Position numbers and translations under genes: made by a program
The notes under the pieces: model-generated
Database searches by the model: none
What the model was told of the DNA's origin: nothing
The model's input: only the letters and a program-made list of their open reading frames with translations
NCBI GenBank assembly: GCA_009843735.1
Contig: VYCW01000087.1
Span: 7,589 to 71,588 of the forward strand
DNA from: Acidimicrobiaceae bacterium
Lineage (GTDB): Bacteria; Actinomycetota; Acidimicrobiia; Acidimicrobiales; Aldehydirespiratoraceae
Direction: 5' to 3'
Length of the DNA stretch: 64,000 nucleotides
Shown here: positions 5,475 through 45,764 of the stretch, in pieces
How the letters are laid out: each line of letters opens with the position of its first letter
Position numbering within the stretch: position 1 is the stretch's first letter

Positions 5475-6238
5475 CACAGCACCCCCAGCTCCTCGAGCAC
5501 GTCTACCACCGCGGGGGCGGCCTCGGGACCGTGGCCCAGGATGGTCGTCTGCGACAGGGTCTCGGCAGGCCGATGCAAACGCACCAGGGCCTGACCCCCC
5601 GCCTCGGCGTCGATCTCCATGGTGGTGATGGCCAGCTTCTTGGACGCCAGGCGGCCTCGCATGGTCGGGTACCGGGGCAGGTTGATGCCCTCCTTCACGC
5701 CGAGGGCGGCGGGCATCGCCAGTTCGTAGACCTCGAAGCCGCCGTCGATCTCGCGGCGGGCCCGCAGGGTCGAACCGTTGATCTCGATCCCCTTGATGCC
5801 GTTGACGATGGGCCGTCCAAGGGAGTAGCACACCCGCACCCCCACCTGGAATCCGCCCGAGTCGGCCGACTCGTTGCCGAACAGGATCAGGTCGAAAGGA
5901 CCGCCGGACTCCTCCAGCGCTTCGATGGCCGCCGTGAGGGCCCGGGCGGTGCGCTCGGGATCCCAGGCCGCGCCGTCGGTCTGGATCAGCACACCGTGGT
6001 GGGCGCCCACCGACGCCGCGTAGCGCAACTGCTCGGCGGCCTCGGCCGGACCCAGGGTCAGCACGGTCACCTCGCCGCCGGTGCGTTCGGTAATCTGCAC
6101 CGCTTCCTCGACGCCGCACTCCTCGTGCGGGCTGGTGGTGAAGCCGAGGTGGGCGGCGTCAACGGCCAGGCCGTCGGCGGTGACGTTGATACGGGCGCCC
6201 GGCGCCGGCACCCGCTTCACGCAGCACAGGATCCTCAT
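5474..6238 (-). CDS. etfB: Electron transfer flavoprotein subunit beta
   Basis: 254 aa. MRILCCVKRVP... typical EtfB N-terminus. Coupled to etfA. Confidence 0.9.
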   Translation of the reverse strand: MRILCCVKRVPAPGARINVTADGLAVDAAHLGFTTSPHEECGVEEAVQITERTGGEVTVLTLGPAEAAEQLRYAASVGAHHGVLIQTDGAAWDPERTARALTAAIEALEESGGPFDLILFGNESADSGGFQVGVRVCYSLGRPIVNGIKGIEINGSTLRARREIDGGFEVYELAMPAALGVKEGINLPRYPTMRGRLASKKLAITTMEIDAEAGGQALVRLHRPAETLSQTTILGHGPEAAPAVVDVLEELGVL

Positions 6239-13667: not shown

Positions 13668-14567
13668 CTAGGCCGGGAAGGCTCCCAGCATCCGGGCCCC
13701 GGCCAGGGTGTTCTGCAGCAGGCAGGCGATGGTCATGGGACCGGTGCCGCCGGGCATGGGCGTGACCGCGCCGGCCACCTCCTGGACCGCATCGAAGTCC
13801 ACGTCACCGACGATGCCGTCGGCCGTGCGCGAGATCCCCACGTCGATCACCGCGGCGCCAGGCTTCACGAAATCGGCGGTGACCAGCCGGGCCATGCCGG
13901 CCGCGGCTACCAGGATGTCGGCCTGCCGGCAGACGGCCTGGAGCTCGGGCGTGCGGCTGTGGGCCAGGGTGGGTGTGGCGTCCACGCCCTTGCGGCCCAG
14001 CAGCAGGATCTGAGGGAGCCCCACCAGAGTCGAGCGGCCGATCACCACGGCCCGCGTGCCCGAAGTCGGCACCCCGTAGCGATCCAGCAGGCGCATGACC
14101 CCCAGCGGCGTGCACGGCACGTGCCCGGACTGACCGCGCACCAGGCGGCCCATCGACCGGGGCGTCAACCCGTCCACATCCTTCTGCGGCGGGATCAGCT
14201 CCAGCACAGCGTCGGCGTCGAGACCCTCGGGCAGGGGGAGCTGCACCAGGATCCCGTGGACGCCGGGATCGGAAGCCAGGTTCCGGACCGCCTCCTCCAC
14301 CTCGCCCTGGGCCGCGTCGGCACCCAGCTCGACATGGCGCGACACCATGGCCGCCTCCGCAGCCTTGCGCTGCTTGTTCCGCACGTAGATCCGGCTCGGC
14401 TTGTCGTCGCCCACCAGCACCGTGGCCAGGCAGACCTCAGGACTCCCGGCCGCAGTGATCTCCGCGTTGAGCTCAGCAACGATCTCGTCCCGCAGCCGGT
14501 TGCCGTCCATCAGAACCGCCCCACCCCCGGTCCTCTCGAAGTCGTCCAGATGGGAATGCTCGGTCAT
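13668..14567 (-). CDS. folD: Bifunctional methylenetetrahydrofolate dehydrogenase/methenyltetrahydrofolate cyclohydrolase
   Basis: 299 aa. YVRNKQKAA, GILVQLPLP and GGTGPMTIA motifs. AGGAGG directly upstream of the ATG. Confidence 0.95.
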   Translation of the reverse strand: MTEHSHLDDFERTGGGAVLMDGNRLRDEIVAELNAEITAAGSPEVCLATVLVGDDKPSRIYVRNKQRKAAEAAMVSRHVELGADAAQGEVEEAVRNLASDPGVHGILVQLPLPEGLDADAVLELIPPQKDVDGLTPRSMGRLVRGQSGHVPCTPLGVMRLLDRYGVPTSGTRAVVIGRSTLVGLPQILLLGRKGVDATPTLAHSRTPELQAVCRQADILVAAAGMARLVTADFVKPGAAVIDVGISRTADGIVGDVDFDAVQEVAGAVTPMPGGTGPMTIACLLQNTLAGARMLGAFPA

Positions 14568-14652
14568 CGTCCTCCTGTCGGGGGGTGAAAAATCGTCGAT
14601 TCTTGTCGTTAGACGGTCTCGACAGGGTAGACACCGCGGGCCTACGATGGCC

Positions 14653-14675
14653 GTTCCGGCATACGGAACTGTTCC
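14653..14675. promoter_or_regulatory. Candidate operator: GTTCCG-GCATA-CGGAAC-T-GTTCC (three alternating half-sites)
   Basis: Lies in the divergent folD/serA-like intergenic region. Same half-site and 5-nt spacer as 8897..8913. Confidence 0.5.
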
Positions 14676-14734
14676 AAAACAGCGCGTCTCAAGTTCGAAT
14701 CGCGCCGTTTGAGAGATTCCGAGGTGGGAGCAGC

Positions 14735-15937: not shown

Positions 15938-17211
15938 GCTGGGCGGAGCCGATGCTGGCGCCCTTCGCGGGATGGCTGGTCAAGCCGGAGTGGGCCGGCC
16001 GGGTGATCAGCCGCGCCTACGACAACCTCACTCCGGGTCAGCGCCGCTCCATCGTCAGGGAGAACCCGTACAGCTACGTCAACGTCACCCGCAGCAGCGA
16101 GGACCTGCTCGAAAACGAGGATCTGTCCCTCGACAGGCTCGTTACGCAGGGCGCGGCCGCCCTGACCCGCCTGCTCGACGCGGAGGTCTTCGCCCCGACC
16201 GGGCGCCGCGCCCTGTACCTGTACCGCCTGACCCACGCCCGGGGCTCCCAGACCGGCCTCATCTGCACGGTGGCGGTGAACGGCTTCGACGAGGGCCGCA
16301 TCCGAATACACGAGGGCGTGAGGCAGGATCGCACCGAACTGCTGACCGATCATCTGATGGGGGTGGGCGCCACGTCGCACCCTGTGGCGCTCGCGGTCAG
16401 GGCGTGGGCGGACTCCGAGTACGCGGCGCTGCTGGACGAGGCCGCCCACGCCGCAATACCCGACCTGGAGTTCGGCTCGGAGCTGGTCCGTCACCAGATC
16501 TGGACGGTTCCGGCCAACCTGACCGACAAGCTCCTGGAGTCGCTGGCCGGCAAGGTCCTGTATGTGACCGACGGTCATCATCGCTCGGCCGCGGCCCAGC
16601 GGGCCCTGACCCGTGATCCGGACAACCCTGTGCTGGCCCGCACGCTGGCTGCGGTCTTCCCGCACAGCCAACTGCACGTCGAGGCGTACCACCGGGTCGT
16701 CGCCGACCAGAACCACGAAAGCCACGACGACTGCCTGTGGGCCGTTCGCTCCAGGGTCAGCTACATGGGGGGCGAGCTGGAGCGCGTACCGAGCGCGGAG
16801 GACGCCCGGCCCCGGCACCGGGGCGAGGTGGGCGTGTACGCGACGGGAACCTGGCACCGGCTGACGCTGCCACCGCCGGACTCCGAGGCGGGGGCCCTCG
16901 ACGCGCTCGACGTCGACCGGCTGCGCCGGCTGGTGCTGGACCCGGTGCTGGGCGCCGAGGAACTGGCGGCCACCGGCACCGTGGACTACGTCCCGGACAC
17001 CGCGGGCCTCGACGAGCTGATCAGACGCTGCGAGGACTCCGACAGGATCGGCTTCGTGATGTACCCGCTGTCGGTGGACGAACTGCTGGCCGTGGCCGAC
17101 GAGAGCAGCAAGATGCCGCCCAAGTCGAGCTTCTTCTACCCGAAGCCCCGGGCCGGCGCGTTCCTGCGGGTGCTCGGTCGGGGCGCCACCGCCCACTTGG
17201 ACCCGTCTTAG
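15934..17211 (+). CDS. DUF1015 family protein
   Basis: ATG 15934 overlaps the serA-like stop (ATGA). MSWAEPMLAPFAGW...VTDGHHRSAAA... is typical of DUF1015, a family often linked to serA. Confidence 0.75.
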   Translation: MSWAEPMLAPFAGWLVKPEWAGRVISRAYDNLTPGQRRSIVRENPYSYVNVTRSSEDLLENEDLSLDRLVTQGAAALTRLLDAEVFAPTGRRALYLYRLTHARGSQTGLICTVAVNGFDEGRIRIHEGVRQDRTELLTDHLMGVGATSHPVALAVRAWADSEYAALLDEAAHAAIPDLEFGSELVRHQIWTVPANLTDKLLESLAGKVLYVTDGHHRSAAAQRALTRDPDNPVLARTLAAVFPHSQLHVEAYHRVVADQNHESHDDCLWAVRSRVSYMGGELERVPSAEDARPRHRGEVGVYATGTWHRLTLPPPDSEAGALDALDVDRLRRLVLDPVLGAEELAATGTVDYVPDTAGLDELIRRCEDSDRIGFVMYPLSVDELLAVADESSKMPPKSSFFYPKPRAGAFLRVLGRGATAHLDPS

Positions 17212-30138: not shown

Positions 30139-31461
30139 CTACAGCCCGGCCAGGAGGTTCTGCGCGGCCACCGAGATCGGCTCGTTGAGGGCGCCGATGG
30201 CGGGCGAGTAGACGTTCTCCATCGTGGCCAGCTCCTCAACGGTGAGCCCGACCCGCACCGCCATGGCCAGGAAGTCGGCCCGCTCCTTGATGCCCTCGCC
30301 GCCCACCATCTGCGCGCCGATCAACCGGAGCGACCCCGGCTCGGCCAGCAGCTTCACGGTGATGGGCCTCACGCCCGGGTAGTAGCGGGCCCGGGTGATG
30401 CCCTGGGCCTTGCCCACCACGTGCTGGATGCCCAACGCGGTGGCCAGCGTCTCGCCGAAGGACACCCCGCCGATCATCCACTCTCCGGCCAGCAGGCCCC
30501 ACGGCACGAACACCGGCCGGTAGTGGCGGGTGCCGCCCGCCGCGTTGGTGCCGGCCGTCTTGCCCTGGGCGTAGGCGTGGGAACCGGTCAGCCCCTGGAT
30601 CGGGATGTCGGTGACGCCGTGCGGGATCTCGGTGCAGTCGCCGGCCGCGTAGATGTTCGGATCGGAGGTCTGCATCCTGGAGTCGACGACCAGCCCGCCG
30701 GTCGTACCCAGCTGCAGACCGGCGGCCTCGGCCAGCGGGTTGTTGGGCACCTTGTGAGTGCCGATGATGACGATGTCGGTGTCGATGTCGCCCTGCTCGG
30801 TCTCGACCCGACTCACAGCGCCATCGCCCCTGAAGGCGGTGACCCAGTTGCCCCACTGCATGTCGACATCGGCGTCCTCCCAGGCCTGGCGGACGGGCTC
30901 GACGATGTCGGGATCGAGCACATCGGCCATCGGCCAGGGGGCCCGGTCGACGACGGTCACCTTGATCCCCCGGTGCAGCAGGGCCGCGACCATCTCCATG
31001 GCCACCAGACCGGCCTCGACGATCACCGCCGACTTGCAGGAGTCGAGGCGCTTGTCCCAGTCCATGGCCGCCCGGATGTACTTGACCTCGTAGATCCCGT
31101 CGAGGTCGGCCCCATCGACATCCACCTTGGCGTAGTTCCAGCCGGCGCCGATGATGAGCCGGTCATAGGACACCACGCCCTCACCCGCGACGGTGAGGGT
31201 GCGCGCCTTCGCGTCGATGGCCTCGACGGTGGTCTCGTAGTGGACGTCGATCCCGGTGTTTACGTACTGCTCCTTGGTGGCCAGGAAGAGCCGCTCGAAT
31301 GAGTCGATCTCGCGCCCGTGGACGTAGGGGATCCCGCAGGGGCTGTAGGCCACATCAGTGTCGGCGGTGTAGACCACCACCTCCGCGCTGGGATCGACCG
31401 CCTTGGCCGCGCCGGCGGCACCCAGTCCTGCGGCGCCTCCGCCGATCACTGCGATCCGCAT
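30139..31461 (-). CDS. Pyridine nucleotide-disulfide oxidoreductase (NADH oxidase/CoA-disulfide reductase-like); proposed MSMEG_0569-family flavoprotein
   Basis: 440 aa. MRIAVIGGGAAG, single redox Cys in YSPCGIPY, and a second Rossmann fold. Confidence 0.8.
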   Translation of the reverse strand: MRIAVIGGGAAGLGAAGAAKAVDPSAEVVVYTADTDVAYSPCGIPYVHGREIDSFERLFLATKEQYVNTGIDVHYETTVEAIDAKARTLTVAGEGVVSYDRLIIGAGWNYAKVDVDGADLDGIYEVKYIRAAMDWDKRLDSCKSAVIVEAGLVAMEMVAALLHRGIKVTVVDRAPWPMADVLDPDIVEPVRQAWEDADVDMQWGNWVTAFRGDGAVSRVETEQGDIDTDIVIIGTHKVPNNPLAEAAGLQLGTTGGLVVDSRMQTSDPNIYAAGDCTEIPHGVTDIPIQGLTGSHAYAQGKTAGTNAAGGTRHYRPVFVPWGLLAGEWMIGGVSFGETLATALGIQHVVGKAQGITRARYYPGVRPITVKLLAEPGSLRLIGAQMVGGEGIKERADFLAMAVRVGLTVEELATMENVYSPAIGALNEPISVAAQNLLAGL

Positions 31462-31503: not shown

Positions 31504-31565
31504 CCGACGTGTCGGATGAGATATCTACGTATCGGAACCTAAAGCCGCCACCGCTCGGGTGTCAA
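31504..31565 (-). promoter_or_regulatory. Promoter TTGACA-N18-TAGGTT plus conserved +5..+25 box (ATATCTCATCCGACACGTCGG)
   Basis: -35 at 31560..31565 and -10 at 31536..31541, with the box at 31504..31524. 31/43 identity with 36666..36708, in the same register relative to the -10. Confidence 0.6.
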
Positions 31566-31592: not shown

Positions 31593-32048
31593 TCAAACGG
31601 CCACCACCGACAGCTCGGGGGTGTTGCGGATGGTGTTGCTCACGTAGCACACCCGGGCCGCGGCCTCCACCAGCGCGGCCTTGACGGACTCCTCGCAGCC
31701 GGCGTCGACCCGTATCTCCAGCGCCGAGAACCGGGGCCCGTCGTAGGTGCCGGTCACCTCCACATCGACATGGGACAGCTCGATGCCGCGCTTGCCGGCC
31801 GCGTGGGCCACCGCCAGCGTGAAGCAGGACGACAGCGCGGCCAGGAGCAGCTCGGTCGGCTGGGGCCCCTCGTTGGTGCCGCCCACGCTCTCGGGCTCGT
31901 CCACCGGGATCGTGAAGTCGCCGGCGGTGACATCGCAGCGGTATGCACCCAGCCACCGGGCCGAGACTGTGCGGGTAAGCGAACTCACGAAGAAGTCGTC
32001 CTTCAGGCGGTGGCTCAGCCCGTCAACTATACGACGCCCCCCGATCAC
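31593..32048 (-). CDS. OsmC/Ohr family peroxiredoxin-like protein
   Basis: GGTNEGPQPTELLLAALSSC and VCYVSNT motifs. Alternative GTG start at 31988. Confidence 0.8.
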   Translation of the reverse strand: MIGGRRIVDGLSHRLKDDFFVSSLTRTVSARWLGAYRCDVTAGDFTIPVDEPESVGGTNEGPQPTELLLAALSSCFTLAVAHAAGKRGIELSHVDVEVTGTYDGPRFSALEIRVDAGCEESVKAALVEAAARVCYVSNTIRNTPELSVVAV

Positions 32049-32081
32049 AAGCGAAAGACGGCCGTCTAGGATTCACGCCCT

Positions 32082-32720
32082 ATGCGCCGCGAGACCGGCA
32101 ACGGCAACGGAGGAGACGGCTCGGAGACACCGCCGAGCCCGACGCACGGCGAGGACCTGAGCGCGGTCGTGAACTCGATCGGACCCAAGGTCCGCCACCT
32201 TCGCAAGCAGTGGAACCTGTCGCTGCAGCAGCTCGCCGACCGGTCCAACGTCTCGACCGCAGCCATCCACAAGGTCGAGCAGGGCGCGATGGTGCCGACC
32301 ATCACGACGCTGCTGAAGCTGGCTGCGGCCCTGGAACAGCCGGTGTCGTACTTCGTGGAGGAGGACCAGGAGCCGCCGCTGTACGCGGTCTTCACACCCG
32401 CCGCCGAGCGCCGGTCGATCTACACGCCCCATGAGGGTCTCTCCCTGGGCGGCATCTCGGGCCCCTACGGGCAGTACTTCGTGGCGACCGCCATCGCCGA
32501 GGTCGAGCCGGGGGCCGACAGCGGCGAGAACCCTCTGCGCCACGCCGGCGAGGAGCTCATCCACATGCTGTCGGGGCGGCTCGACGTCGATGTCGGCGAC
32601 CAGTCGTTCCAGCTGCGCCGGGGCGACTCGATCCACTTCCGGACCGACCAGGAGCACCGCTGGCACAACCCGTACCGGCACACCGCACGGGCGGTGTGGA
32701 CCGCCCTGAGACCCACCTGA
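32082..32720 (+). CDS. XRE-family HTH transcriptional regulator with C-terminal cupin domain (PuuR-like architecture)
   Basis: IGPKVRHLRKQWNLSLQQLADRSNVSTAAIHKVEQG HTH, followed by a cupin (GEELIHMLSGRL...GDSIHF). Confidence 0.85.
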   Translation: MRRETGNGNGGDGSETPPSPTHGEDLSAVVNSIGPKVRHLRKQWNLSLQQLADRSNVSTAAIHKVEQGAMVPTITTLLKLAAALEQPVSYFVEEDQEPPLYAVFTPAAERRSIYTPHEGLSLGGISGPYGQYFVATAIAEVEPGADSGENPLRHAGEELIHMLSGRLDVDVGDQSFQLRRGDSIHFRTDQEHRWHNPYRHTARAVWTALRPT

Positions 32721-36115: not shown

Positions 36116-36643
36116 TTAGGGGATCTCGTTCCCCGTGGCGAGGATCAGAGCCGGCACCCAGAACGTGTAGATCGCGGTTCCGGCCAGGACCAGGCCCAGG
36201 AGCTTGGCTTCGAGCTTGCCGTAGGTGGTGAGGGCCACCGACCCGAACGCGACCAGCCACACGATAAGGATCGACTGGAACATCCAGCTGCCGTCGAAGA
36301 AGTCCCACCAGAACATCGGGAGGATGGCCGTCGGCACGGCGAGGTTCCCCACCACGCGCAGGTCCCATCCATTGGCCTCTGTCTTGCCGAGAACCACGAA
36401 GAACAGGCCGTAGAACGTGACCAGTCCGGCGAGGACGACCGACGCGTCGTCCAGCGGCCGGGCCCACATGATGTAGACGGCCTGGACCAGGTTCAGCAGA
36501 CCCACGATCAGGCTGGCGTGCCCGATGCTGACAAGCGGGTTCGTTCCCCCCTCCTTCTGATCGGCGCCCACGCCGAGGAAGTAGAGGGCGTTCAGCCACA
36601 CGATTAGGCCGGTGGCAATGAACACGATGGTTATGGGAGGCAT
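36116..36643 (-). CDS. AmiS/UreI family amide/urea channel
   Basis: 175 aa with six predicted TM helices. Size and W/F-rich pattern are typical of AmiS/UreI. Confidence 0.65.
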   Translation of the reverse strand: MPPITIVFIATGLIVWLNALYFLGVGADQKEGGTNPLVSIGHASLIVGLLNLVQAVYIMWARPLDDASVVLAGLVTFYGLFFVVLGKTEANGWDLRVVGNLAVPTAILPMFWWDFFDGSWMFQSILIVWLVAFGSVALTTYGKLEAKLLGLVLAGTAIYTFWVPALILATGNEIP

Positions 36644-36665
36644 GACAAGCCCCTTCCTGCCCCAC

Positions 36666-36726
36666 CCGACATTTCGGATGAGACATAGTTATTTCCCAAC
36701 CTAAACCCTGGGCGATCAGGCGTCAA
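36666..36726 (-). promoter_or_regulatory. Promoter TTGACG-N17-TAGGTT plus conserved +5..+25 box (ATGTCTCATCCGAAATGTCGG)
   Basis: -35 at 36721..36726 and -10 at 36698..36703, with the box at 36666..36686. Paralogous to 31504..31565. Confidence 0.6.
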
Positions 36727-36779
36727 ACCTGGCGCGGCAACACTCCGGATCCGGGGCCGGCTAACGCCCCGGCGCCATC

Positions 36780-37148
36780 TCAGTGATCGTGATGATGGTC
36801 GTGATCGCCGTGGTCGTGATCGCCGTGGTCGTGGCCCGGTGGGCGGGCCGCGTAGGCCGCGGCCAGCGCGTCCACCTCGGGCTCCGAGACGATCGCCCGC
36901 TCCTCCACGATCCACTCGAGGGCCTCCTGCCAGCGCTCGTAGTAGCGGTACTCCCCCACCGGATCCGACTCCCAGCGCTGCACGGCCGCGATCAGATGGT
37001 CGCGGAAGTCATCCCAGGTGAAGTGGCCACCCTCCACCAGAGCCATGGCCATGGCGAAGCTGCGCCCCTCCCAGGGCGCGTCGAATACCAGCTCACCGTT
37101 GAGCCGGGGCGGAGCGGCCGGGCCTTCGATGTCGAGGGTGAGAGCCAC
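36780..37148 (-). CDS. Nitrile hydratase accessory (activator/metallochaperone) protein with His-rich tail
   Basis: 122 aa. Beta-subunit-like N-terminal region (FDAPWEGRSFAMA) and a C-terminal HDHGDHDHGDHDHHHDH. Confidence 0.8.
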   Translation of the reverse strand: MALTLDIEGPAAPPRLNGELVFDAPWEGRSFAMAMALVEGGHFTWDDFRDHLIAAVQRWESDPVGEYRYYERWQEALEWIVEERAIVSEPEVDALAAAYAARPPGHDHGDHDHGDHDHHHDH

Positions 37149-38415: not shown

Positions 38416-38463
38416 CGGAGCCTCCCGTTTGCTGGATTCCTCGGTCGCTGACCCGGCGTGTCA

Positions 38464-38469
38464 ACTATA
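38464..38469 (-). promoter_or_regulatory. Candidate -10 box TATAGT upstream of nthB
   Basis: TCTTATAGT on the minus strand, 49 nt upstream of the ATG. The same 9-mer recurs at 45674..45682. No good -35. Confidence 0.3.
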
Positions 38470-38506
38470 AGACAGCGACTCGTCGCAAGAGAAACGCGAG
38501 CGCCCC

Positions 38507-40027
38507 TTACACCAATCCGGCGAGAGTTCGGGCCTGCGCCAGCAGCGCCTCCTCGGCGTGGGCGTAGCGCTCCTGCTCCTCGACGGCCCGGGCCCGCAGC
38601 TGGGCGGCCCGGGCGGTGAACTCCTCGGCCATCGACTTGACCTCGCCGGGGGACGCTCCGCCAGTCGCCCTGCGGGTGGCCACGATACGGCGCGGGTCCA
38701 GGGCGTCGGCCAGGGCGGCCGGGTCGAGCCCGAGCCGCCGACCGCAGACCTCGGAGGCCGCGTCGTCCAGCATCTGCGGTGTGATGTCGAGGCCGGTGAG
38801 CCCCTGGCGGCTGGCTGCTCGCACCGTCCTTCCCACCACGTTGTAGGCCGTGCGGTAGTCGACGCCGCCGGCCACCATCACGTACTCGGCGAGGTCGGTG
38901 GCCTGGGCGAAGCCGCGCTCCAGTTCAGACCACATGCGCTCGGCGTTGACGCTCAGGGTTCTCACCACTCCGGTGGTGAGGGCGCTCACCCGAATGGTGA
39001 AGTCGAGGGCCCTGGGGATCTCGCCGTAGGCGAAGATCAGGTTGTCGCTGCGAGCCGACGGGCTCTTGACCACGGCCAGGAAGCCGCTCATCCGGCCGAT
39101 CAGCACCCCGCTGGCTCCCCGGATGATCGACAGTGCGTAGGGGTTGCGCTTCTGGGGCATCAGCACCGAGGCCCGGGTGAACGGTCCGGCCAGGTCGACG
39201 TAGTCGAACTCCTGGCTGGACCAGATCTCGAGGTCCTCGGCCAGCTTGGCCTGGTTGGCGATCATGCTGGCCGAAGTGGCCAGCAGGTCGATGAAGACGT
39301 CGGTCTGCCACATGGCGTCGCGGGTGTGGGCGATCACGCCGTCGAACCCGAGCGCGTCGGCGATGGCGCCCCTGTCGTCGAGCAGCCGGCTGCCGTTGAC
39401 GCAGCCCGCGCCGCCGGGGCTGGTGTTCACCTGGTCGAGGGCGGCCGAGAACCGCTCACCGTCACGCAGCGCGGGTGGAACGAACGCGAGGAGGTAGTGC
39501 CCGAATGTCGACGGCTGGGCCTGCTGGAGGTAGGTCTGGTCGCCCATGAAGGTCTCAGCGTGGTCGGCGGCGACCGCAGAGGCCGCCGACGCGAAGTCGG
39601 CCCCCACCTCGATGAGGTGTGCCGTCTGGGACCGCAGCAGCAGCCTCAGCGCTACCCGGGCCGCCTCCCGCCGGGGACGACCAGCATGGAGCCACCCGGC
39701 GGAGTCGCCGATGCGTTGCGCGAAGTGGCGCTCCCGCGAGTTGTAGACCTCCCCGGTGGCGGCGTCGTACGGGAAGTCGGCGGGGTCGGTGCGGTGGGCT
39801 TCCAGCAGCACGCCCAGCAGCGCGGCCGCGGCCGGCTCGGGAATGAGGCTCCGGGCCCGTAGGTCGAGCACGTGACCCAGGTCGGCCAGGTTCAGACCGT
39901 GGTGCAGCAGCGGTGCGTCGGCGATCTCCCAGGCGAACCCGGCGTCGACCAGTTCCCGGGCCGGCGCCTCCGACGACGGCCCGGCGAGCCGCGGCACCGG
40001 GTTTGATCCCTTCGGGTCCACACTCAC
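38507..40027 (-). CDS. Argininosuccinate lyase-like fumarate-lyase superfamily protein
   Basis: 506 aa. ArgH-like layout with the signature region SVLMPQKRNP. Confidence 0.75.
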   Translation of the reverse strand: MSVDPKGSNPVPRLAGPSSEAPARELVDAGFAWEIADAPLLHHGLNLADLGHVLDLRARSLIPEPAAAALLGVLLEAHRTDPADFPYDAATGEVYNSRERHFAQRIGDSAGWLHAGRPRREAARVALRLLLRSQTAHLIEVGADFASAASAVAADHAETFMGDQTYLQQAQPSTFGHYLLAFVPPALRDGERFSAALDQVNTSPGGAGCVNGSRLLDDRGAIADALGFDGVIAHTRDAMWQTDVFIDLLATSASMIANQAKLAEDLEIWSSQEFDYVDLAGPFTRASVLMPQKRNPYALSIIRGASGVLIGRMSGFLAVVKSPSARSDNLIFAYGEIPRALDFTIRVSALTTGVVRTLSVNAERMWSELERGFAQATDLAEYVMVAGGVDYRTAYNVVGRTVRAASRQGLTGLDITPQMLDDAASEVCGRRLGLDPAALADALDPRRIVATRRATGGASPGEVKSMAEEFTARAAQLRARAVEEQERYAHAEEALLAQARTLAGLV

Positions 40028-40030
40028 CGG

Positions 40031-41380
40031 TTAGGCCCACTCATCGGTCTCGGCGGATCGGCGGCCGGAGGCGGCGGCTACGACCGCGTCGACCATCGCC
40101 GAGGCTGCGCCGGTCTCGGGCCGGTCCAGACCCTCCAGGTCGGCCGGCGACGCGACATGCTCCAGGACCTCCGTCAGCGGGCGGCCGCTGAGCCGGGCGG
40201 TCCGGTAGGCCTGCTGGAGCTCGTCATTGGCCCGGTGCTTGCCCAGGCGGGCCGACAGGCGCCTCAGCAGTTCCTGGGACCCGAAGTCGCCCATGGTCTC
40301 CAGGTTGGCCGCCATCGCCTCGGCATCCACCTCGATGCTCGCCGCGAGGCCGCGGGCCAGGCCCAGTTGGGCCAGCAAGTAGTGGCCAATCTCCGGCAGC
40401 AGCACCCACTCGGTCTTCCAGGTGCGGCCGTCGCGCTCGTGGTCGCCGACCATGGTCTCGGTGAGCACACCCGAGGCCGAGCGCACCAGCCGGGCGAGGG
40501 TCACGATCTGCTCGCTGCGCTCCGGGTTGCGCTTGTGGGGCATGGTGATGCTGCCCATGGTGGCCTCGGACGCCGCCTCCGCGACCTCGCCGATCTCGCG
40601 CCGCTGGAGGTTGTACACCTCGTTGGCCATCCGGGCCATGGTCGCCGAGACCAGAGCCGAGTTGTTGGCGAACTCGGCGATCCGGTCCCGGGCCGTGAGC
40701 CAAGAGACGGTCGGCTCCCCCAGTTCGAGGCGTTGGCAGAAGCGGCGGCGCAGTTCGGGTCCGAGCTCTCCGTAGAAGCCCAGGGCCCCGACCGCCCCGG
40801 CCAGCTGGCCCACCACGAGGCGGGGACGGCTCTGGCGCCAGCGCTCCAGATGGCGGGCCGTCTCATCGGCCCATGAGGCTGCCTTGAGCCCGAAGGTCAC
40901 CGGAGCGCCCGGCTGGCCGTGGGTGCGGCCCAGCATGGGCGTGTCGCGGTGGCGCCCGGCCAGATCGAGCAGCGAGGCCTCCACCGCCCGCAGGTCTCGC
41001 CACACGATGGCGCCGACGTCGCGCATCTCCAGCGCGGCGGCGGTGTCGGTGACGTCCTGCACGGTGGCGCCGTAGTAGACGTGCTCGCGGGCCTCGGCGG
41101 GCAGCAGGGCTTGCAGCTCGCGCACCAGCCCGATGGTGGAGTGGGACGTCCGGCGGGTCTCCGCGCCCACCGCGGCCGGGTCCAGCCGGCTCGCGTCGAG
41201 GTCTTCTATCGCCGCGGCGGAAGCGGCAGGGATGATCTCGAGGTCGGCCTGCGCGGCGGCCAGAGCCTTGAGCACCCGCACCCAGCGGGACAGGCGGGCG
41301 CGCTCGGAGAACAGGGCCAGCGACTCCGAGGTGGACCACCCGTGGCCGTAGATGGCCGAGTCGATCAGGTGGGCGTCCAC
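40031..41380 (-). CDS. Adenylosuccinate lyase / 3-carboxy-cis,cis-muconate cycloisomerase-like fumarate-lyase superfamily protein
   Basis: GTG 41380 (VDAHLIDSAIYG...) overlaps the upstream gene by 16 nt. GRTHGQPGAP and GSITMPHKRNP signature. 449 aa. Confidence 0.8.
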   Translation of the reverse strand: MDAHLIDSAIYGHGWSTSESLALFSERARLSRWVRVLKALAAAQADLEIIPAASAAAIEDLDASRLDPAAVGAETRRTSHSTIGLVRELQALLPAEAREHVYYGATVQDVTDTAAALEMRDVGAIVWRDLRAVEASLLDLAGRHRDTPMLGRTHGQPGAPVTFGLKAASWADETARHLERWRQSRPRLVVGQLAGAVGALGFYGELGPELRRRFCQRLELGEPTVSWLTARDRIAEFANNSALVSATMARMANEVYNLQRREIGEVAEAASEATMGSITMPHKRNPERSEQIVTLARLVRSASGVLTETMVGDHERDGRTWKTEWVLLPEIGHYLLAQLGLARGLAASIEVDAEAMAANLETMGDFGSQELLRRLSARLGKHRANDELQQAYRTARLSGRPLTEVLEHVASPADLEGLDRPETGAASAMVDAVVAAASGRRSAETDEWA

Positions 41381-42312
41381 GCGCCGTCCTCGGTCCCGGC
41401 CAGCGTGTGGAGGGCGGTGCGCACCTCTTCGAGGGTCGCACCCCACGGCACCATGACGGTGTCGCCGTGCCGCTCCATTCCCTCGTCCAGCATGCAGCAG
41501 CGGCTCAGGACGAGTCCCGCGCCGGCCGCGTCGCCGGCGGCGTCCATGAGCCGGCGGGGGCACCAATCGATGGTGCGGGGAGCGTCGGTCCCGTAGAACC
41601 AGCGGTGGATCTGCTGGGAGCGCTCGCAGCCGAGCAGGGTCGAACCGGCGAAGGACGGGCGCTCGTCGAGGTGCGACACCGAGACCCCCTCGAGTTCGAT
41701 CCCCCCGCCACGGCAGGGAACGATCAGACCCTCCGACGGTTGCGAACCGGCCTCGGCCACCAGCGAGCGGCTGTCGACGATCCACTCGCTCACCGAGATG
41801 GGCGGCAGGTCCTCGGCCGAGTCCAGGACCCTGGCGACCTGGTCAGCCAGCTTGGAGGGCTCCGGTGGCACGACATCCATCACCGTCACCCGGACGGGGT
41901 CGGCGTTGAGCAGGAAGCTCACATGGCGGTACCGGCCCTCCACCACCACGCACCGGTGATCGGGGCGCTGGGCCGCGGCCCGGGCCAGGTGCGATCCGAC
42001 GCCCAGGTCGAGGCTGTCGTCGCGCACGTAGGCGCATTCGGCGGCCGTTGCCAGCACACGGGCGGCGACCGCCTCGGAGAACAGGTCGTCGCTGCCGTCG
42101 CGGGCCAACTCCACCAGCGCGCAGCGTTCGGGGTCGCCATCCAGGCGGGCGATCACGAATCTGGTCCGGTGGTACGCCTCGCGTCCGGTGAAGCGGGCCA
42201 CCAGATCGTCGGGCGACAGGCTGGGAACCGATGCCACCGACACCTGCCGGTAACGGGCCGGCATCACGTTGGGCGCGGCCGGATCTAGCTCGAACACGGC
42301 CTCATGGTCCAC
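41365..42312 (-). CDS. Cys-rich hypothetical protein (family not recognised)
   Basis: About 300-315 aa (GTG 42312 or ATG 42264) with coding-like composition. C-terminal Cys pattern VPCRGGG...GCERSQ...WCPRR...SRCCMLD. Overlaps both neighbours. Confidence 0.6.
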   Translation of the reverse strand: MDHEAVFELDPAAPNVMPARYRQVSVASVPSLSPDDLVARFTGREAYHRTRFVIARLDGDPERCALVELARDGSDDLFSEAVAARVLATAAECAYVRDDSLDLGVGSHLARAAAQRPDHRCVVVEGRYRHVSFLLNADPVRVTVMDVVPPEPSKLADQVARVLDSAEDLPPISVSEWIVDSRSLVAEAGSQPSEGLIVPCRGGGIELEGVSVSHLDERPSFAGSTLLGCERSQQIHRWFYGTDAPRTIDWCPRRLMDAAGDAAGAGLVLSRCCMLDEGMERHGDTVMVPWGATLEEVRTALHTLAGTEDGAWTPT

Positions 42313-43105
42313 CGAGCGACCCCGCGGTGTGGGTGGGAAGGCTGGTCCTGAGGGTGTCGGAGCGCAGCCCGCGCCGGAGCGCCTCCACGCCGAGCACCTC
42401 AGCCGGAGCGATGTTGGCCAGGTTGACGTTCGCGCCCAAGTGGTTGATGAGCCAGGCCTGCTGCTGGCGCCGCGGCGCCTCGTAGACGACCGGCGCGTCC
42501 TCGCCGAGGCGTCCCAGGGCCTCCACCAGGTCGGTGCGAACCGACCCGTCGGCGCCATAGAGGCCCACCGTCCCGCTCTCGCGGCCCTCGGCCACCAGCC
42601 ACGCCGCGCCGCAGTCCAGGTCGCTGCGGGCCTCGTCGAGCCATTCCGACGGCAGGGCCGGCTCATGGGGATCCTTGCTGCCCACCTCCGAGAACACTTC
42701 GAAGCCGTGGCCGCGGGCCGCACCGATCAGTTCGCGCTTGGAAGAGGCCGGCAGGCCGGTAGCGCCCCGCGAGACCTCCACGCAGCCGAAGCCGAGACGG
42801 CGGGACCAGTCGAAGAACTCGGCGCTGCGGCCCTGCCACCACGCTGCTTCCAGCAGGGTCCCGCCCGGACAGGCCTTGACGCCGTGGGTCTCCAGCAACT
42901 CGATCTTGGCTCCGACCGTGCTGTCGATGTAGGCGGTGCCGAAGCCGAACTTCCAGACATCCACGAACGCGCCGTGGGCCTCGAGCAGTTCGCCCATGCT
43001 CTCCAACGGCGTGCCCTTGTCGATTATGTGGGTGATCCCCCGGCGGCGCGGCTTGGTCGTCCGAGCGGCAGTCTCAAGGAACCGGGGAGGCTCGGAGATG
43101 GGCAT
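42302..43105 (-). CDS. Phosphosulfolactate synthase (ComA) family protein
   Basis: KPRRRGITHIIDKG and DVWKFGFGT motifs of the ComA TIM barrel. ATG 43105 lies behind AGGAGA. Tracked TTG start at 43135. Confidence 0.75.
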   Translation of the reverse strand: MPISEPPRFLETAARTTKPRRRGITHIIDKGTPLESMGELLEAHGAFVDVWKFGFGTAYIDSTVGAKIELLETHGVKACPGGTLLEAAWWQGRSAEFFDWSRRLGFGCVEVSRGATGLPASSKRELIGAARGHGFEVFSEVGSKDPHEPALPSEWLDEARSDLDCGAAWLVAEGRESGTVGLYGADGSVRTDLVEALGRLGEDAPVVYEAPRRQQQAWLINHLGANVNLANIAPAEVLGVEALRRGLRSDTLRTSLPTHTAGSLGGP

Positions 43106-43127
43106 CGGGATGATCTCCTGACCGGCG

Positions 43128-43964
43128 TCACCCAACGGCGGGCCGAGACACCATTGTACGGGTCACGTCAGTACGGGGCAGTTCGGTGGCGGCCAGAGCG
43201 AGGCCGGCGGTGAGCGCCCGGCCCGAGGTCGCGCCCACTGCGGCCAGCGACTGGGCGGCCCGCACCATTGCGTCGCCGTCGCCGGATCCTGCCGCGTCCA
43301 GCAAGGCGTGGGCGGGCTGGATGCTCTGGCCGGCCGCGGCCCACCTCAGGTAGGCGCGGCTGAGCGTGGTCGTGCGGGCCGTGCGGGCCAAGCGCCCCAG
43401 GGCTACGCGGCGTGCCGAGTCCGTGGCGCACGCCAGCAGGATCCCGGCGAGCACGTCGTCGCCGCTCGGCGTGAGCCCGGGGCCACGCCCCGCAAGCCGA
43501 CCGAACACCGCGGCCAGGTCCCCGCGCCGAAGGTCATGTTTCACCGCTTCCCAAACGGGTGCCAGATCGACGTCCACTCCGGCCGCGAGACCATGCCAAG
43601 CCTCCGGGTCTGCCTTGAGGCGCTCGGGCAGGCTCGGTGCCCAGCGACGGCATCCGTCGAGCAGTACGGCGACCGGGCCGGCCACAAGGGTGCCGTCGGA
43701 GACACGCACTCTCTCGTGAACCGCAGGTAGTTCAGCCATCTCGCCGACGACGAGGTGCAGGGGCCCCGGCCAGTGTCGGGGACCCACTACCGCGAAGATC
43801 TCCTCGGAGGGGCCTGAGACATAGAAGCCGTCGTCGAAGGCGCCCTGCACCCGGCCGACGAATCCGGGACAGGCCGCTTCGAGAACCCCGGCACCGCACC
43901 AGAGCACCGGGACGGGCTCCGCTACTGCTGTACCGTGCGGCCGTGGCCCCGCCCGAGTCATCAT
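43128..43964 (-). CDS. DUF2877 family protein (YlbF/AllH-like)
   Basis: GRGPGLTPSGDDVLAG motif. ATG 43964 (MMTRAG...). The upstream part of the tracked ORF is Arg-rich, non-coding-like sequence. Confidence 0.65.
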   Translation of the reverse strand: MMTRAGPRPHGTAVAEPVPVLWCGAGVLEAACPGFVGRVQGAFDDGFYVSGPSEEIFAVVGPRHWPGPLHLVVGEMAELPAVHERVRVSDGTLVAGPVAVLLDGCRRWAPSLPERLKADPEAWHGLAAGVDVDLAPVWEAVKHDLRRGDLAAVFGRLAGRGPGLTPSGDDVLAGILLACATDSARRVALGRLARTARTTTLSRAYLRWAAAGQSIQPAHALLDAAGSGDGDAMVRAAQSLAAVGATSGRALTAGLALAATELPRTDVTRTMVSRPAVG

Positions 43965-45593: not shown

Positions 45594-45673
45594 GGTGCCG
45601 ACTCCTCGTCGTGGGCGCACCCGTCGTTCAGCACGAGACATTGTGGCTTGGCAGGGCCTTGAACGCGTCATCT

Positions 45674-45679
45674 ACTATA
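45674..45679 (-). promoter_or_regulatory. Candidate -10 box TATAGT
   Basis: TCTTATAGT on the minus strand in the divergent 45594..45764 region. Shared with 38464..38472. Confidence 0.25.
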
Positions 45680-45764
45680 AGAAAGTCGGTTCTGCTATCG
45701 GCAGGTCCGCCAACTGGGGCCGGCTCCGCCGGACCCGATCAGGCCTGACGAGAGGGAGTGCGCC

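Follow-up and report, generated by a model that had tools for sequence, protein, structure and literature searches.

The 64,000-nucleotide stretch of contig VYCW01000087.1 analysed here, hereafter termed the window, stems from an uncultured marine bacterium of the order Acidimicrobiales and contains two similar promoters, both reading on the minus strand, that are located inside one large gene cluster for nitrogen/nitrile metabolism. The first of these, S1, is the promoter of genes for a flavoprotein and the proteins Hp2 and Hp1, and the second, S2, is that of amiS and genes for a radical SAM protein (rSAM), a GNAT protein and an AllG-like protein. Each is followed by a closely related sequence box, the function of which is considered in the following.

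The cluster extends from 49.5 kb down to 29.3 kb of the window. Genes for an MSMEG_0565-family glycosyltransferase, an FdrA-like protein and a carbamate kinase are encoded on the plus strand, and the divergent minus-strand genes start with the conserved unknown gene X and the gene for a 323-residue unknown protein, followed by those for an AllH-like protein, ComA, an XcbA-family protein and two aspartase/fumarase-type lyases and continue with the beta, alpha and accessory genes of a nitrile hydratase, amiS, the MSMEG_0568-family radical SAM gene, the MSMEG_0567-family GNAT gene and the AllG-like gene. There follow the gene for an XRE-cupin regulator on the plus strand and, again on the minus strand, the genes for OsmC, the flavoprotein, an 86-residue open reading frame and an MSMEG_0572-family protein. 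The gene assignments made in a preliminary description of this DNA proved essentially right, both for amiS, radical SAM and GNAT genes downstream of S2 and for the pyridine-nucleotide-disulfide oxidoreductase (the flavoprotein), the 86-residue open reading frame (Hp2) and the MSMEG_0572/Sll0783-family protein (Hp1) downstream of S1. Its notion of two separate Nit1C-type operons has to be replaced: both units are parts of one cluster of ~21 kb that does not contain the Nit1C nitrilase. Four family matches exceed the cut-offs of Nit1C/gpr models (TIGR04043, 363 bits; TIGR04045, 91; TIGR04044, 201; TIGR04047, 368), and the radical SAM, GNAT, Hp1 (MSMEG_0572) and glycosyltransferase members of the Nit1C/gpr cluster are all present. 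Neither the sll0784-type nitrilase nor the AIR-synthase-related protein occurs among the genes examined (~28-49.5 kb), and the three nitrile hydratase genes are found in place of the nitrilase. The cluster is related to Nit1C/gpr and differs from it in lacking the nitrilase. Candidates for the MSMEG_0569-family flavoprotein and the MSMEG_0570-family Hp2 of that cluster are the flavoprotein, the best models for which, among the best 25 of 47 matches, are coenzyme A (CoA)-disulfide reductases, with scores below the cut-offs, and the 86-residue open reading frame, which has no family match; in distant loci, each of the two keeps its synteny with Hp1. Nit1C/gpr 'nitrogen-starvation' clusters, with their radical SAM, GNAT and DsrE-like proteins, are widespread.

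Table 1. Promoters, boxes, predicted operators and genes discussed in the text (coordinates refer to the window; PWM, position weight matrix).
Feature	Position	Strand	Sequence	Remarks
S1 -35 hexamer	31560..31565	-	TTGACA	TTGAC in 27/27 orthologous S1 regions
S1 -10 hexamer	31536..31541	-	TAGGTT	within GGCTTTAGGTT; TTTAGGTT with 98% column identity in 24 distinct orthologues; spacer variable
S1 box	31504-31524	-	ATATCTCATCCGACACGTCGG	flavoprotein start codon at 31461
S1 operator-like unit 1	31508..31525	+	CGTGTCG+GATGAGATAT+C	PWM p = 1.3e-4 in window; core of the box as described earlier
S1 operator-like unit 2	31528..31545	+	CGTATCG+GAACCTAAAG+C	flank fits canonical operator, p = 8e-4; over -10 hexamer and expected transcription start site
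S2 -35 hexamer	36721..36726	-	TTGACG	from sequence and conservation in orthologues
S2 -10 hexamer	36698..36703	-	TAGGTT	within GGGTTTAGGTT; 97% column identity
S2 box	36666-36686	-	ATGTCTCATCCGAAATGTCGG	amiS start codon at 36643
S2 operator-like unit 1	36670..36687	+	CATTTCG+GATGAGACAT+A	8th best of ~128,000 window positions; core of the box
S2 operator-like unit 2	36690..36707	+	TATTTCC+CAACCTAAAC+C	second member of best pair, 20-bp spacing
Predicted RNA hairpin, amiS leader	36658..36685	-	UGUCUCAUCCGA-AAUG-UCGGGUGGGGCA	box = 5' arm; 12 bp
Flavoprotein gene	30139-31461	-		440 residues
amiS	36116-36643	-
XRE-cupin (PuuR-like) regulator gene	32082..32720	+		candidate binder; HTH_3 6.8e-10, Cupin_2 1e-15
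Canonical operator (predicted), XRE/OsmC divergent region	32021..32038	-	GGCGTCG-TATAGTTGAC-G	its TATAGT is the likely OsmC -10
Canonical operator (predicted), upstream of nitrile hydratase beta	38459..38476	-	GCTGTCT-TATAGTTGAC-A
Strongest canonical operator (predicted), divergent region between gene-X operon and carbamate kinase-FdrA-glycosyltransferase	45669..45686	-	ACTTTCT-TATAGTAGAT-G

On re-reading the sequence, the order TTGACA-N18-TAGGTT (31565-31536) ahead of the flavoprotein gene and TTGACG-N17-TAGGTT (36726-36698) ahead of amiS was confirmed (Table 1), with TAGGTT embedded in GGCTTTAGGTT at S1 and in GGGTTTAGGTT at S2. The same holds true for a common sequence, ATnTCTCATCCGAnAnGTCGG, that follows each -10 hexamer at identical spacing, so that S1 continues as TAGGTT-CCGATACGTAG-ATATCTCATCCGACACGTCGG and S2 as TAGGTT-GGGAAATAACT-ATGTCTCATCCGAAATGTCGG. 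The identity of 31 of 43 aligned positions given earlier was returned by a repeat finder as 43 nt at 72%, and a repeat search of the window yielded two copies only of this promoter-box element. When the two intergenic regions were compared, the best ungapped local score was 19, vs. a mean of 8.6 and a maximum of 15 for shuffled sequences, none of 2000 of which reached 19.

Hexamer spacing at both promoters (18 and 17 bp, respectively) falls within the 16-19 bp of sigma-70-type promoters, and TAGGTT fits the actinobacterial TAnnnT rule. A scanner based on the Escherichia coli consensus listed no promoter between 28 and 43 kb, S1 and S2 included; it omits both because TAGGTT agrees with TATAAT at three of six positions only, and the E. 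coli consensus is uninformative for a GC-rich actinobacterium. The promoter assignment is based on the TAnnnT rule and on the pattern of conservation. The neighbourhoods of radical SAM homologues were scanned, yielding 80 loci, ~25 of which belong to the window's own clade of Acidimicrobiales. TTGAC and GGnTTTAGGTT are retained in 27 orthologous regions for S1 and 20 for S2, and the box occurs at both orthologous places in the ~25 clade loci, so that its absence from orthologous clusters, named earlier as a ground for rejection, can be dismissed. Column identity amounts to 0.97-0.98 for TTTAGGTT and 0.91-0.94 for the box, compared with 0.57-0.70 for the spacer and 0.54-0.60 for the sequence after the box. 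Hexamers and box have thus been kept while spacer and leader diverged, a pattern characteristic of functional promoters accompanied by an element downstream that is functional as well, and S1 and S2 are very probably real promoters.

The six loci without amiS (L015, L025, L028, L030, L031, L033) are also without S2, which means that the S2 promoter travels with amiS. Such a pattern is compatible with a module that was inserted along with a copied promoter, and the boxes might then signify no dedicated regulation at all, being either remnants of a duplicated promoter module or a consequence of constraints on the initially transcribed sequences of two strong promoters. We consider this very unlikely, given that the same 18-21 nt have been kept by both copies in ~25 genomes in which neighbouring non-coding positions are saturated with changes, that the region between -10 hexamer and box differs between S1 and S2 and yet has the same half-site in the same 20-bp phase, and that units of a related kind are found even in the distantly related Kribbella.

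A number of further observations were made on the leaders and on the distribution of the box sequence. In three S1 leaders (L013, L021, L024; ~14490-14700) an insertion of ~150-200 nt, the sequence of which is common to all three (…GGCAATGAACTCATCAG…GCGAACAAGAGCGGGGA…), separates the box from the flavoprotein ribosome-binding site. Many S1 orthologues (e.g., L011, ~16230-16256) feature an inverted repeat, GGTGAC-GAAAGG-GTCAC, directly before the flavoprotein ATG with the Shine-Dalgarno sequence in its loop; the window's own copy is without this repeat. A scan of metagenomes for the exact box returned at least 120 matches, almost all of them coding or chance matches in unrelated organisms, and no further regulon members were found among the matches listed. 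In low-GC contigs from soil metagenomes (L091, L111 at 6150-6210, L127, L129, L170, L173, L204, L207), CATCCGATAC-N18-TCTCATCCGATATGTCGG is located upstream of a DUF6268 gene with a CN_hydrolase gene nearby; the repeated half-site CATCCGATA is shared, apparently in an unrelated organism. A tandem array of CCGACAC/CCGAGAC heptamers beside a run of N in an Acidimicrobiales metagenome-assembled genome (L040, 4979-5200) is a chance match to the half-site pattern.

With regard to a possible reader of the boxes, the XRE-cupin protein encoded between the two units, which had been named as a natural candidate, emerged as the best candidate on grounds of synteny and motif, its binding being predicted. 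The protein is 212 residues long and combines an XRE/HTH_3 domain at its N-terminus with a cupin domain at its C-terminus; among relatives of solved structure, 1Y9Q is the closest. The XRE-cupin gene of distant actinobacterial loci is divergently oriented and adjoins the flavoprotein-Hp2-Hp1 genes, in front of which a typical promoter reads TTGAC-N16-TATAGTAAAC-N10/11-TATCGTAGAC. A canonical operator of 18 bp, cgTnTCs-TATAGTArAC-r, was derived from distant loci only and was represented by a position weight matrix (PWM), for which the window's clade was left out of training. Same-strand pairs of PWM sites 18-28 bp apart numbered 65 in the loci vs. 9 after shuffling, an enrichment that is partly circular; seed instances of the PWM had been picked by eye. 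Most pairs are spaced by 20-21 bp, and a single locus usually has several of them, located where different operons begin. A full-length XRE-cupin homologue is encoded in eight loci outside the clade (L039, L073, L077, L078, L083, L084, L085, L087), and all eight carry a canonical pair in the intergenic region beside its gene. The sequence of the recognition helix, S[TA]AAIHK[VI]E[QR], hardly varies between the window and these distant lineages.

In the window, the top distinct 18-mer sites among ~128,000 positions are 45686(-), 38476(-) and 32038(-), with 45669 (+) representing the palindromic partner of the first. All three are conserved through the clade, and the site at 32021-32038 is located 44-61 bp from the start codon of the XRE-cupin gene. 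The best of them (ACTTTCTTATAGTAGATG, pseudo-palindromic) is situated in the intergenic region 45595-45764, next to gene X (44934 to ~45594, minus strand), and extends the putative regulon and the cluster to ~49.5 kb. Gene X itself is without a match in Pfam or NCBIfam and is conserved beside canonical sites; nothing marks it as a regulator. The other two sites belong to a second set of twin promoters on the minus strand, ahead of nitrile hydratase beta (38459-38500) and OsmC (32021-32062), that share TTTCnCTTGnGA-N9-GTCnTATAGTTGAC; in both, TATAGT is the sole -10-like element and lies inside the canonical operator, and both are clade-conserved. The longest open reading frame for OsmC (start at 32048; 31986-32048, minus strand) would engulf operator and -10 hexamer. 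A start at the GTG at 31988, preceded by GAAGGA, appears more likely and agrees with the gene call of 131 residues in the near-identical contig L005. In Kribbella and Nocardioides (L052/L054, 9830-9900; likewise L051 and L055-L058) the stop codon of gene X lies within the canonical operator (…CGTATCGGATGA…), shortly ahead of the radical SAM gene. The opposite strand has an apparent TTGACC -35 hexamer, from which antisense transcripts would run into gene X; this is probably no promoter.

Comparison of the boxes with this operator suggested an arrangement different from the single box at +5 to +25 described before. Each promoter carries two units in head-to-tail orientation, 20 bp apart, one of which (unit 2; CCGATACG in S1, GGGAAATA in S2) overlaps the -10 hexamer and the expected transcription start site. 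By local-composition log-odds, the best same-strand pair with a spacing of 19-21 bp is at each promoter exactly that of box unit and -10 unit, and its score was reached by 4 of 2000 intergenic shuffles for S1 and by 1 of 2000 for S2. The bases that never vary in the box (-5 T, -3 T, -2 C, 0 G, 1 A, 2 T, 6 A, 8 A) occupy those positions at which the canonical motif has high information, whereas S1 and S2 differ from each other (C/A, C/T) where the motif is degenerate, at positions -4 and -6, and the natural box variants TCCCAT and TCTTAT shift towards the consensus. In Kribbella, CGTATCGGATGATAGAC is intermediate between box and consensus and occurs in the same 20-bp phase. One clade member (L029, 12908-12990) contains a 22-bp tandem duplication (CCGATACGCAGCCATCTCAGTT) and, as a consequence, three operator-like units in its flavoprotein promoter, with a period of 20-22 bp. 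The core of unit 2 is explained by the fact that this unit must also encode the -10 hexamer. The palindrome CCGAC-AC-GTCGG noted earlier in the S1 box can be read in the sequence, yet conservation does not follow it; it follows instead an asymmetric operator of 18 bp read on the opposite strand. Of the two roles that had been offered for an element in this position, a repressor operator or a short conserved leader, the operator fits position and sequence best.

Several findings weigh against the assignment of the boxes to the XRE-cupin protein. Single units are weak, as their scores were reached by 152 (S1) and 90 (S2) of 2000 local shuffles, and the boxes are weak variants of sites that have their best window representatives elsewhere (38459-38476, 32021-38, 45669-86). 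Core position 5 is invariantly G in the units vs. T in 152 of 159 canonical instances, which could mean a different reader, and position 7 also departs consistently from the canonical motif. CGG is retained after the box in most S1 orthologues, for which the canonical motif offers no explanation, and the unit architecture (5 nt, N6, 5 nt, repeated) recalls GlnR-type boxes. No XRE-cupin gene is present within 10 kb in the motif-bearing loci of Kribbella, Nocardioides and Paraburkholderia, and no regulator was found beside the motif sites in Paraburkholderia L053; motif and regulator are linked by synteny only. Finally, the amiS copy is clearly under additional RNA-structure constraint, described below, and this hairpin together with the CGG after the box indicates that constraints other than those on an operator act here.

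Part of these findings would be accommodated if the boxes were operators of another trans-acting protein, either a GlnR/OmpR-type regulator of global nitrogen control that binds direct repeats or an unlinked paralogue preferring G at core position 5, with the XRE-cupin protein reading the three canonical sites only. The invariant deviation at core positions 5 and 7 would then define a 'class B' of sites, found only at S1 and S2, and both the head-to-tail repetition with its 20-bp period and the occurrence of motif-bearing loci without a nearby XRE-cupin gene would be in line with such a reader. The homologous cluster MSMEG_0565-0572 of Mycobacterium smegmatis is under control of GlnR (PMC6039565). 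On the other hand, the units agree with the canonical operator in their flank and in eight core positions, and synteny ties this operator to the XRE-cupin gene; no other regulator gene occurs among the cluster genes examined. Moreover, the units at -12 to +27 are in the position of a repressor, whereas GlnR normally activates from upstream of the -35 hexamer. We regard a different reader as unlikely. An iron box of the IdeR/DtxR type, with TTAGGTT as one half of the consensus, was also considered and rejected; counted by hand, agreement at each of the two sites is limited to 11 of 19 positions.

The amiS leader deserves separate treatment. The box of S2 forms the 5' arm of a well-supported predicted RNA hairpin (Table 1) with a folding energy of -17.8 kcal/mol (z = -4.9), and none of 200 shuffled sequences folds as well. 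Among 16 distinct S2 orthologues the 5' arm is invariant, and ~ten forms of the distal 3' arm exist, all of which pair with the box. The mean energy of these 16 hairpins is -14.5 kcal/mol vs. -7.8 kcal/mol when the distal 3' arm alone is shuffled, 80% of the hairpin cells are paired vs. 34-55% in slid controls, and in 13 of the 16 G-U pairs render the sense strand more stable than its antisense counterpart. Counting of pairs gave one compensatory change from C-G to U-A (four sequences) and six pairs that switch between U-A and U-G. The flavoprotein copy behaves differently (z = -0.3; -7.7 vs. -6.9 for shuffled arms; sense equal to antisense). Of the leader-structure proposal, the hairpin can thus be upheld for the amiS copy, and it cannot for the flavoprotein copy; RNA structure is not the common feature because the latter shows no consistent structure. 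In agreement, a covariance model of the S2 hairpin, run over 81 sources, strongly recovered S2 orthologues and S1 only marginally. A further GC-rich hairpin, without T-run (~36750-36775), follows the stop codon of the nitrile hydratase accessory gene just before the S2 promoter.

These data also bear on the idea that the box acts mainly as RNA, i.e., as a short 5'-leader element (UCUCAUCCGA plus a hairpin CCGA-NNNN-UCGG) serving an RNA-binding factor, mRNA stability or translation, with its likeness to an operator being incidental. Orientation and distance to the -10 hexamer are the same at both sites, as such an element would have it, the amiS hairpin with its compensatory change is an argument in its favour, and the CGG following the box in most S1 orthologues would find a place in it. 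It is contradicted by the unstructured flavoprotein copy, by loops and a 5' arm that are conserved in sequence beyond what pairing demands, by the second conserved unit over the -10 hexamer, which is partly outside the transcript, and by Kribbella, in which the homologue of the box faces the gene behind it in antisense orientation. Neither a U-tract nor a conserved leader open reading frame is seen, and a search of Rfam over 26-42 kb returned no match at S1 or S2 at E <= 10. A predominant role as RNA thus appears rather improbable. Three specific kinds of leader were tried and discarded. Riboswitches and ANTAR targets (ACGR loops of mini-ykkC, dual hexaloops) differ from the single hairpin with loops YACG and AAUG, after which no terminator follows. 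A leader peptide or leaderless open reading frame could be read from the ATG at the start of the S2 box, whereas S1 orthologues have ATA, TTA or TTC at this place, and hence no leader open reading frame is conserved. Sequestration of the Shine-Dalgarno sequence by the box appears possible by eye in the window's S2, and the pairing is not kept in orthologues.

Taking these arguments together, we predict, with moderate confidence, that S1 and S2 are sigma-70-type promoters, each of which is overlapped by degenerate tandem operators for the PuuR-like XRE-cupin repressor of the cluster. Two asymmetric units of 18 bp per promoter, arranged head to tail and read on the plus strand, would cover about -12 to +27 relative to start sites expected 6-9 nt after TAGGTT (~31529 at S1, ~36691 at S2), with unit 2 lying over the -10 hexamer and the start site and unit 1 over about +6 to +26. 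Since they are 20 bp apart, the units would be on one face of the helix. Without an inducer, two repressor dimers or a tetramer may occupy both units and block open-complex formation or promoter escape; a ligand bound at the cupin domain would release the repressor. S1 and S2 would be the weak members of a local regulon of five promoters, the other three of which have near-consensus operators, and from this gradation of sites we infer a gradation of affinity: amiS-rSAM-GNAT-AllG and flavoprotein-Hp2-Hp1 may be most easily de-repressed because their operators are weak.

A more elaborate proposal assigns two functions to the same ~20 nt, which would serve at the level of DNA as an operator of the cluster's repressor, weakened through the G that never varies at core position 5, and at the level of RNA as the sequence-constrained 5' arm of a leader hairpin with a co-evolving 3' arm, providing amiS with a second, post-transcriptional control; or else the 'class B' sites would be read by a second factor, splitting the cluster into two differently timed regulons. 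We put this forward as a speculative and not very probable idea. Most likely, the boxes of S1 and S2 represent an ordinary local arrangement of repressor and operators and no new kind of element.

If the prediction of tandem repressor operators is correct, a cluster-specific operator, probably read by a ligand-sensing XRE-cupin repressor, would be common to Acidimicrobiia, Kribbella and Paraburkholderia and would provide a handle on the inducer and hence on the chemistry of the cluster. It would also delimit the regulon to five promoters over ~17 kb, drawing in the nitrile hydratase, the AmiS channel, genes resembling those of coenzyme M biosynthesis and the carbamate kinase/FdrA/AllG/AllH genes, and the combination of strong and weak operators would offer a testable case of graded expression within one cluster. 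As to that chemistry, ComA (phosphosulfolactate synthase), the XcbA-family protein and the two aspartase/fumarase-type lyases (41365-43135 and 38507-41785, minus strand) recall the bacterial gene set for coenzyme M biosynthesis, and their position beside nitrile hydratase, the CoA-disulfide-reductase-like flavoprotein, the DsrE-like protein and OsmC hints at an organosulfur or thiol product. The accessory protein of the nitrile hydratase (36780-36835, minus strand) ends in a C-terminal tail rich in His and Asp (GHDHGDHDHGDHDHHHDH), as expected of a metal-delivering chaperone.

Several known systems lend themselves to comparison. The amiEBCRS operon of Pseudomonas aeruginosa has a structured 5' leader and is regulated through antitermination by AmiR, an ANTAR protein. 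Like it, the S2 unit is an amiS-containing operon of amide metabolism with a structured 5' leader; the leader in the window differs in being a single tetraloop hairpin without terminator, dual hexaloop or Rfam match, and none of the cluster genes examined encodes an ANTAR protein.

PuuR of E. coli shares the architecture of XRE helix-turn-helix and cupin domains with the window protein (26% identity, E = 2e-15). The latter is not a PuuR orthologue because it scores 67 bits with the NCBIfam model for PuuR (NF007408), the cut-off of which is 211. A PuuR consensus with four sites was reportedly described by Nemoto and coworkers (Nemoto et al.) in 2012. In the puuA-puuD region, AAAATATAATGACCA and AAAAATATTGAACA resemble the canonical instances TATAATGAAC and TATATTGAAT, and in both systems several asymmetric, AT-rich sites of ~15 bp are found within one promoter region. 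PuuR is a repressor of the puu operons (PMC9397018). Its targets are catabolic operons in its neighbourhood, from which a small-molecule ligand releases it, much as proposed here; the target genes in the window are unrelated to putrescine.

The gpr cluster of M. smegmatis, MSMEG_0565-0572, has the MSMEG_0568 radical SAM, MSMEG_0567 GNAT, MSMEG_0572/DsrE-like and MSMEG_0565 glycosyltransferase proteins in common with the window. It constitutes one operon that is activated by GlnR from an upstream box (PMC6039565), a precedent that does not favour repression by an XRE-cupin protein; the window cluster, in contrast, is distributed over at least five promoters with repressor-type sites, has a nitrile hydratase in place of the nitrilase and comprises many extra genes.

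The XRE-cupin factors of Pseudomonas (ErfA, PsdR, PauR, PA0535 and others) have been characterized as local, specialised repressors, each of which binds at least one intergenic region beside the gene that encodes it and governs one to a few metabolic operons nearby, probably by occluding promoters (PMC7901475). Their motifs are palindromic (PMC7901475) and they stem from a different phylum, whereas the operator unit in the window is only pseudo-palindromic (6/9 positions by reading of the consensus) and occurs in head-to-tail pairs with a period of 20-21 bp. The overall plan is alike, with one regulator gene in the cluster and predicted sites at five promoters within 17 kb.

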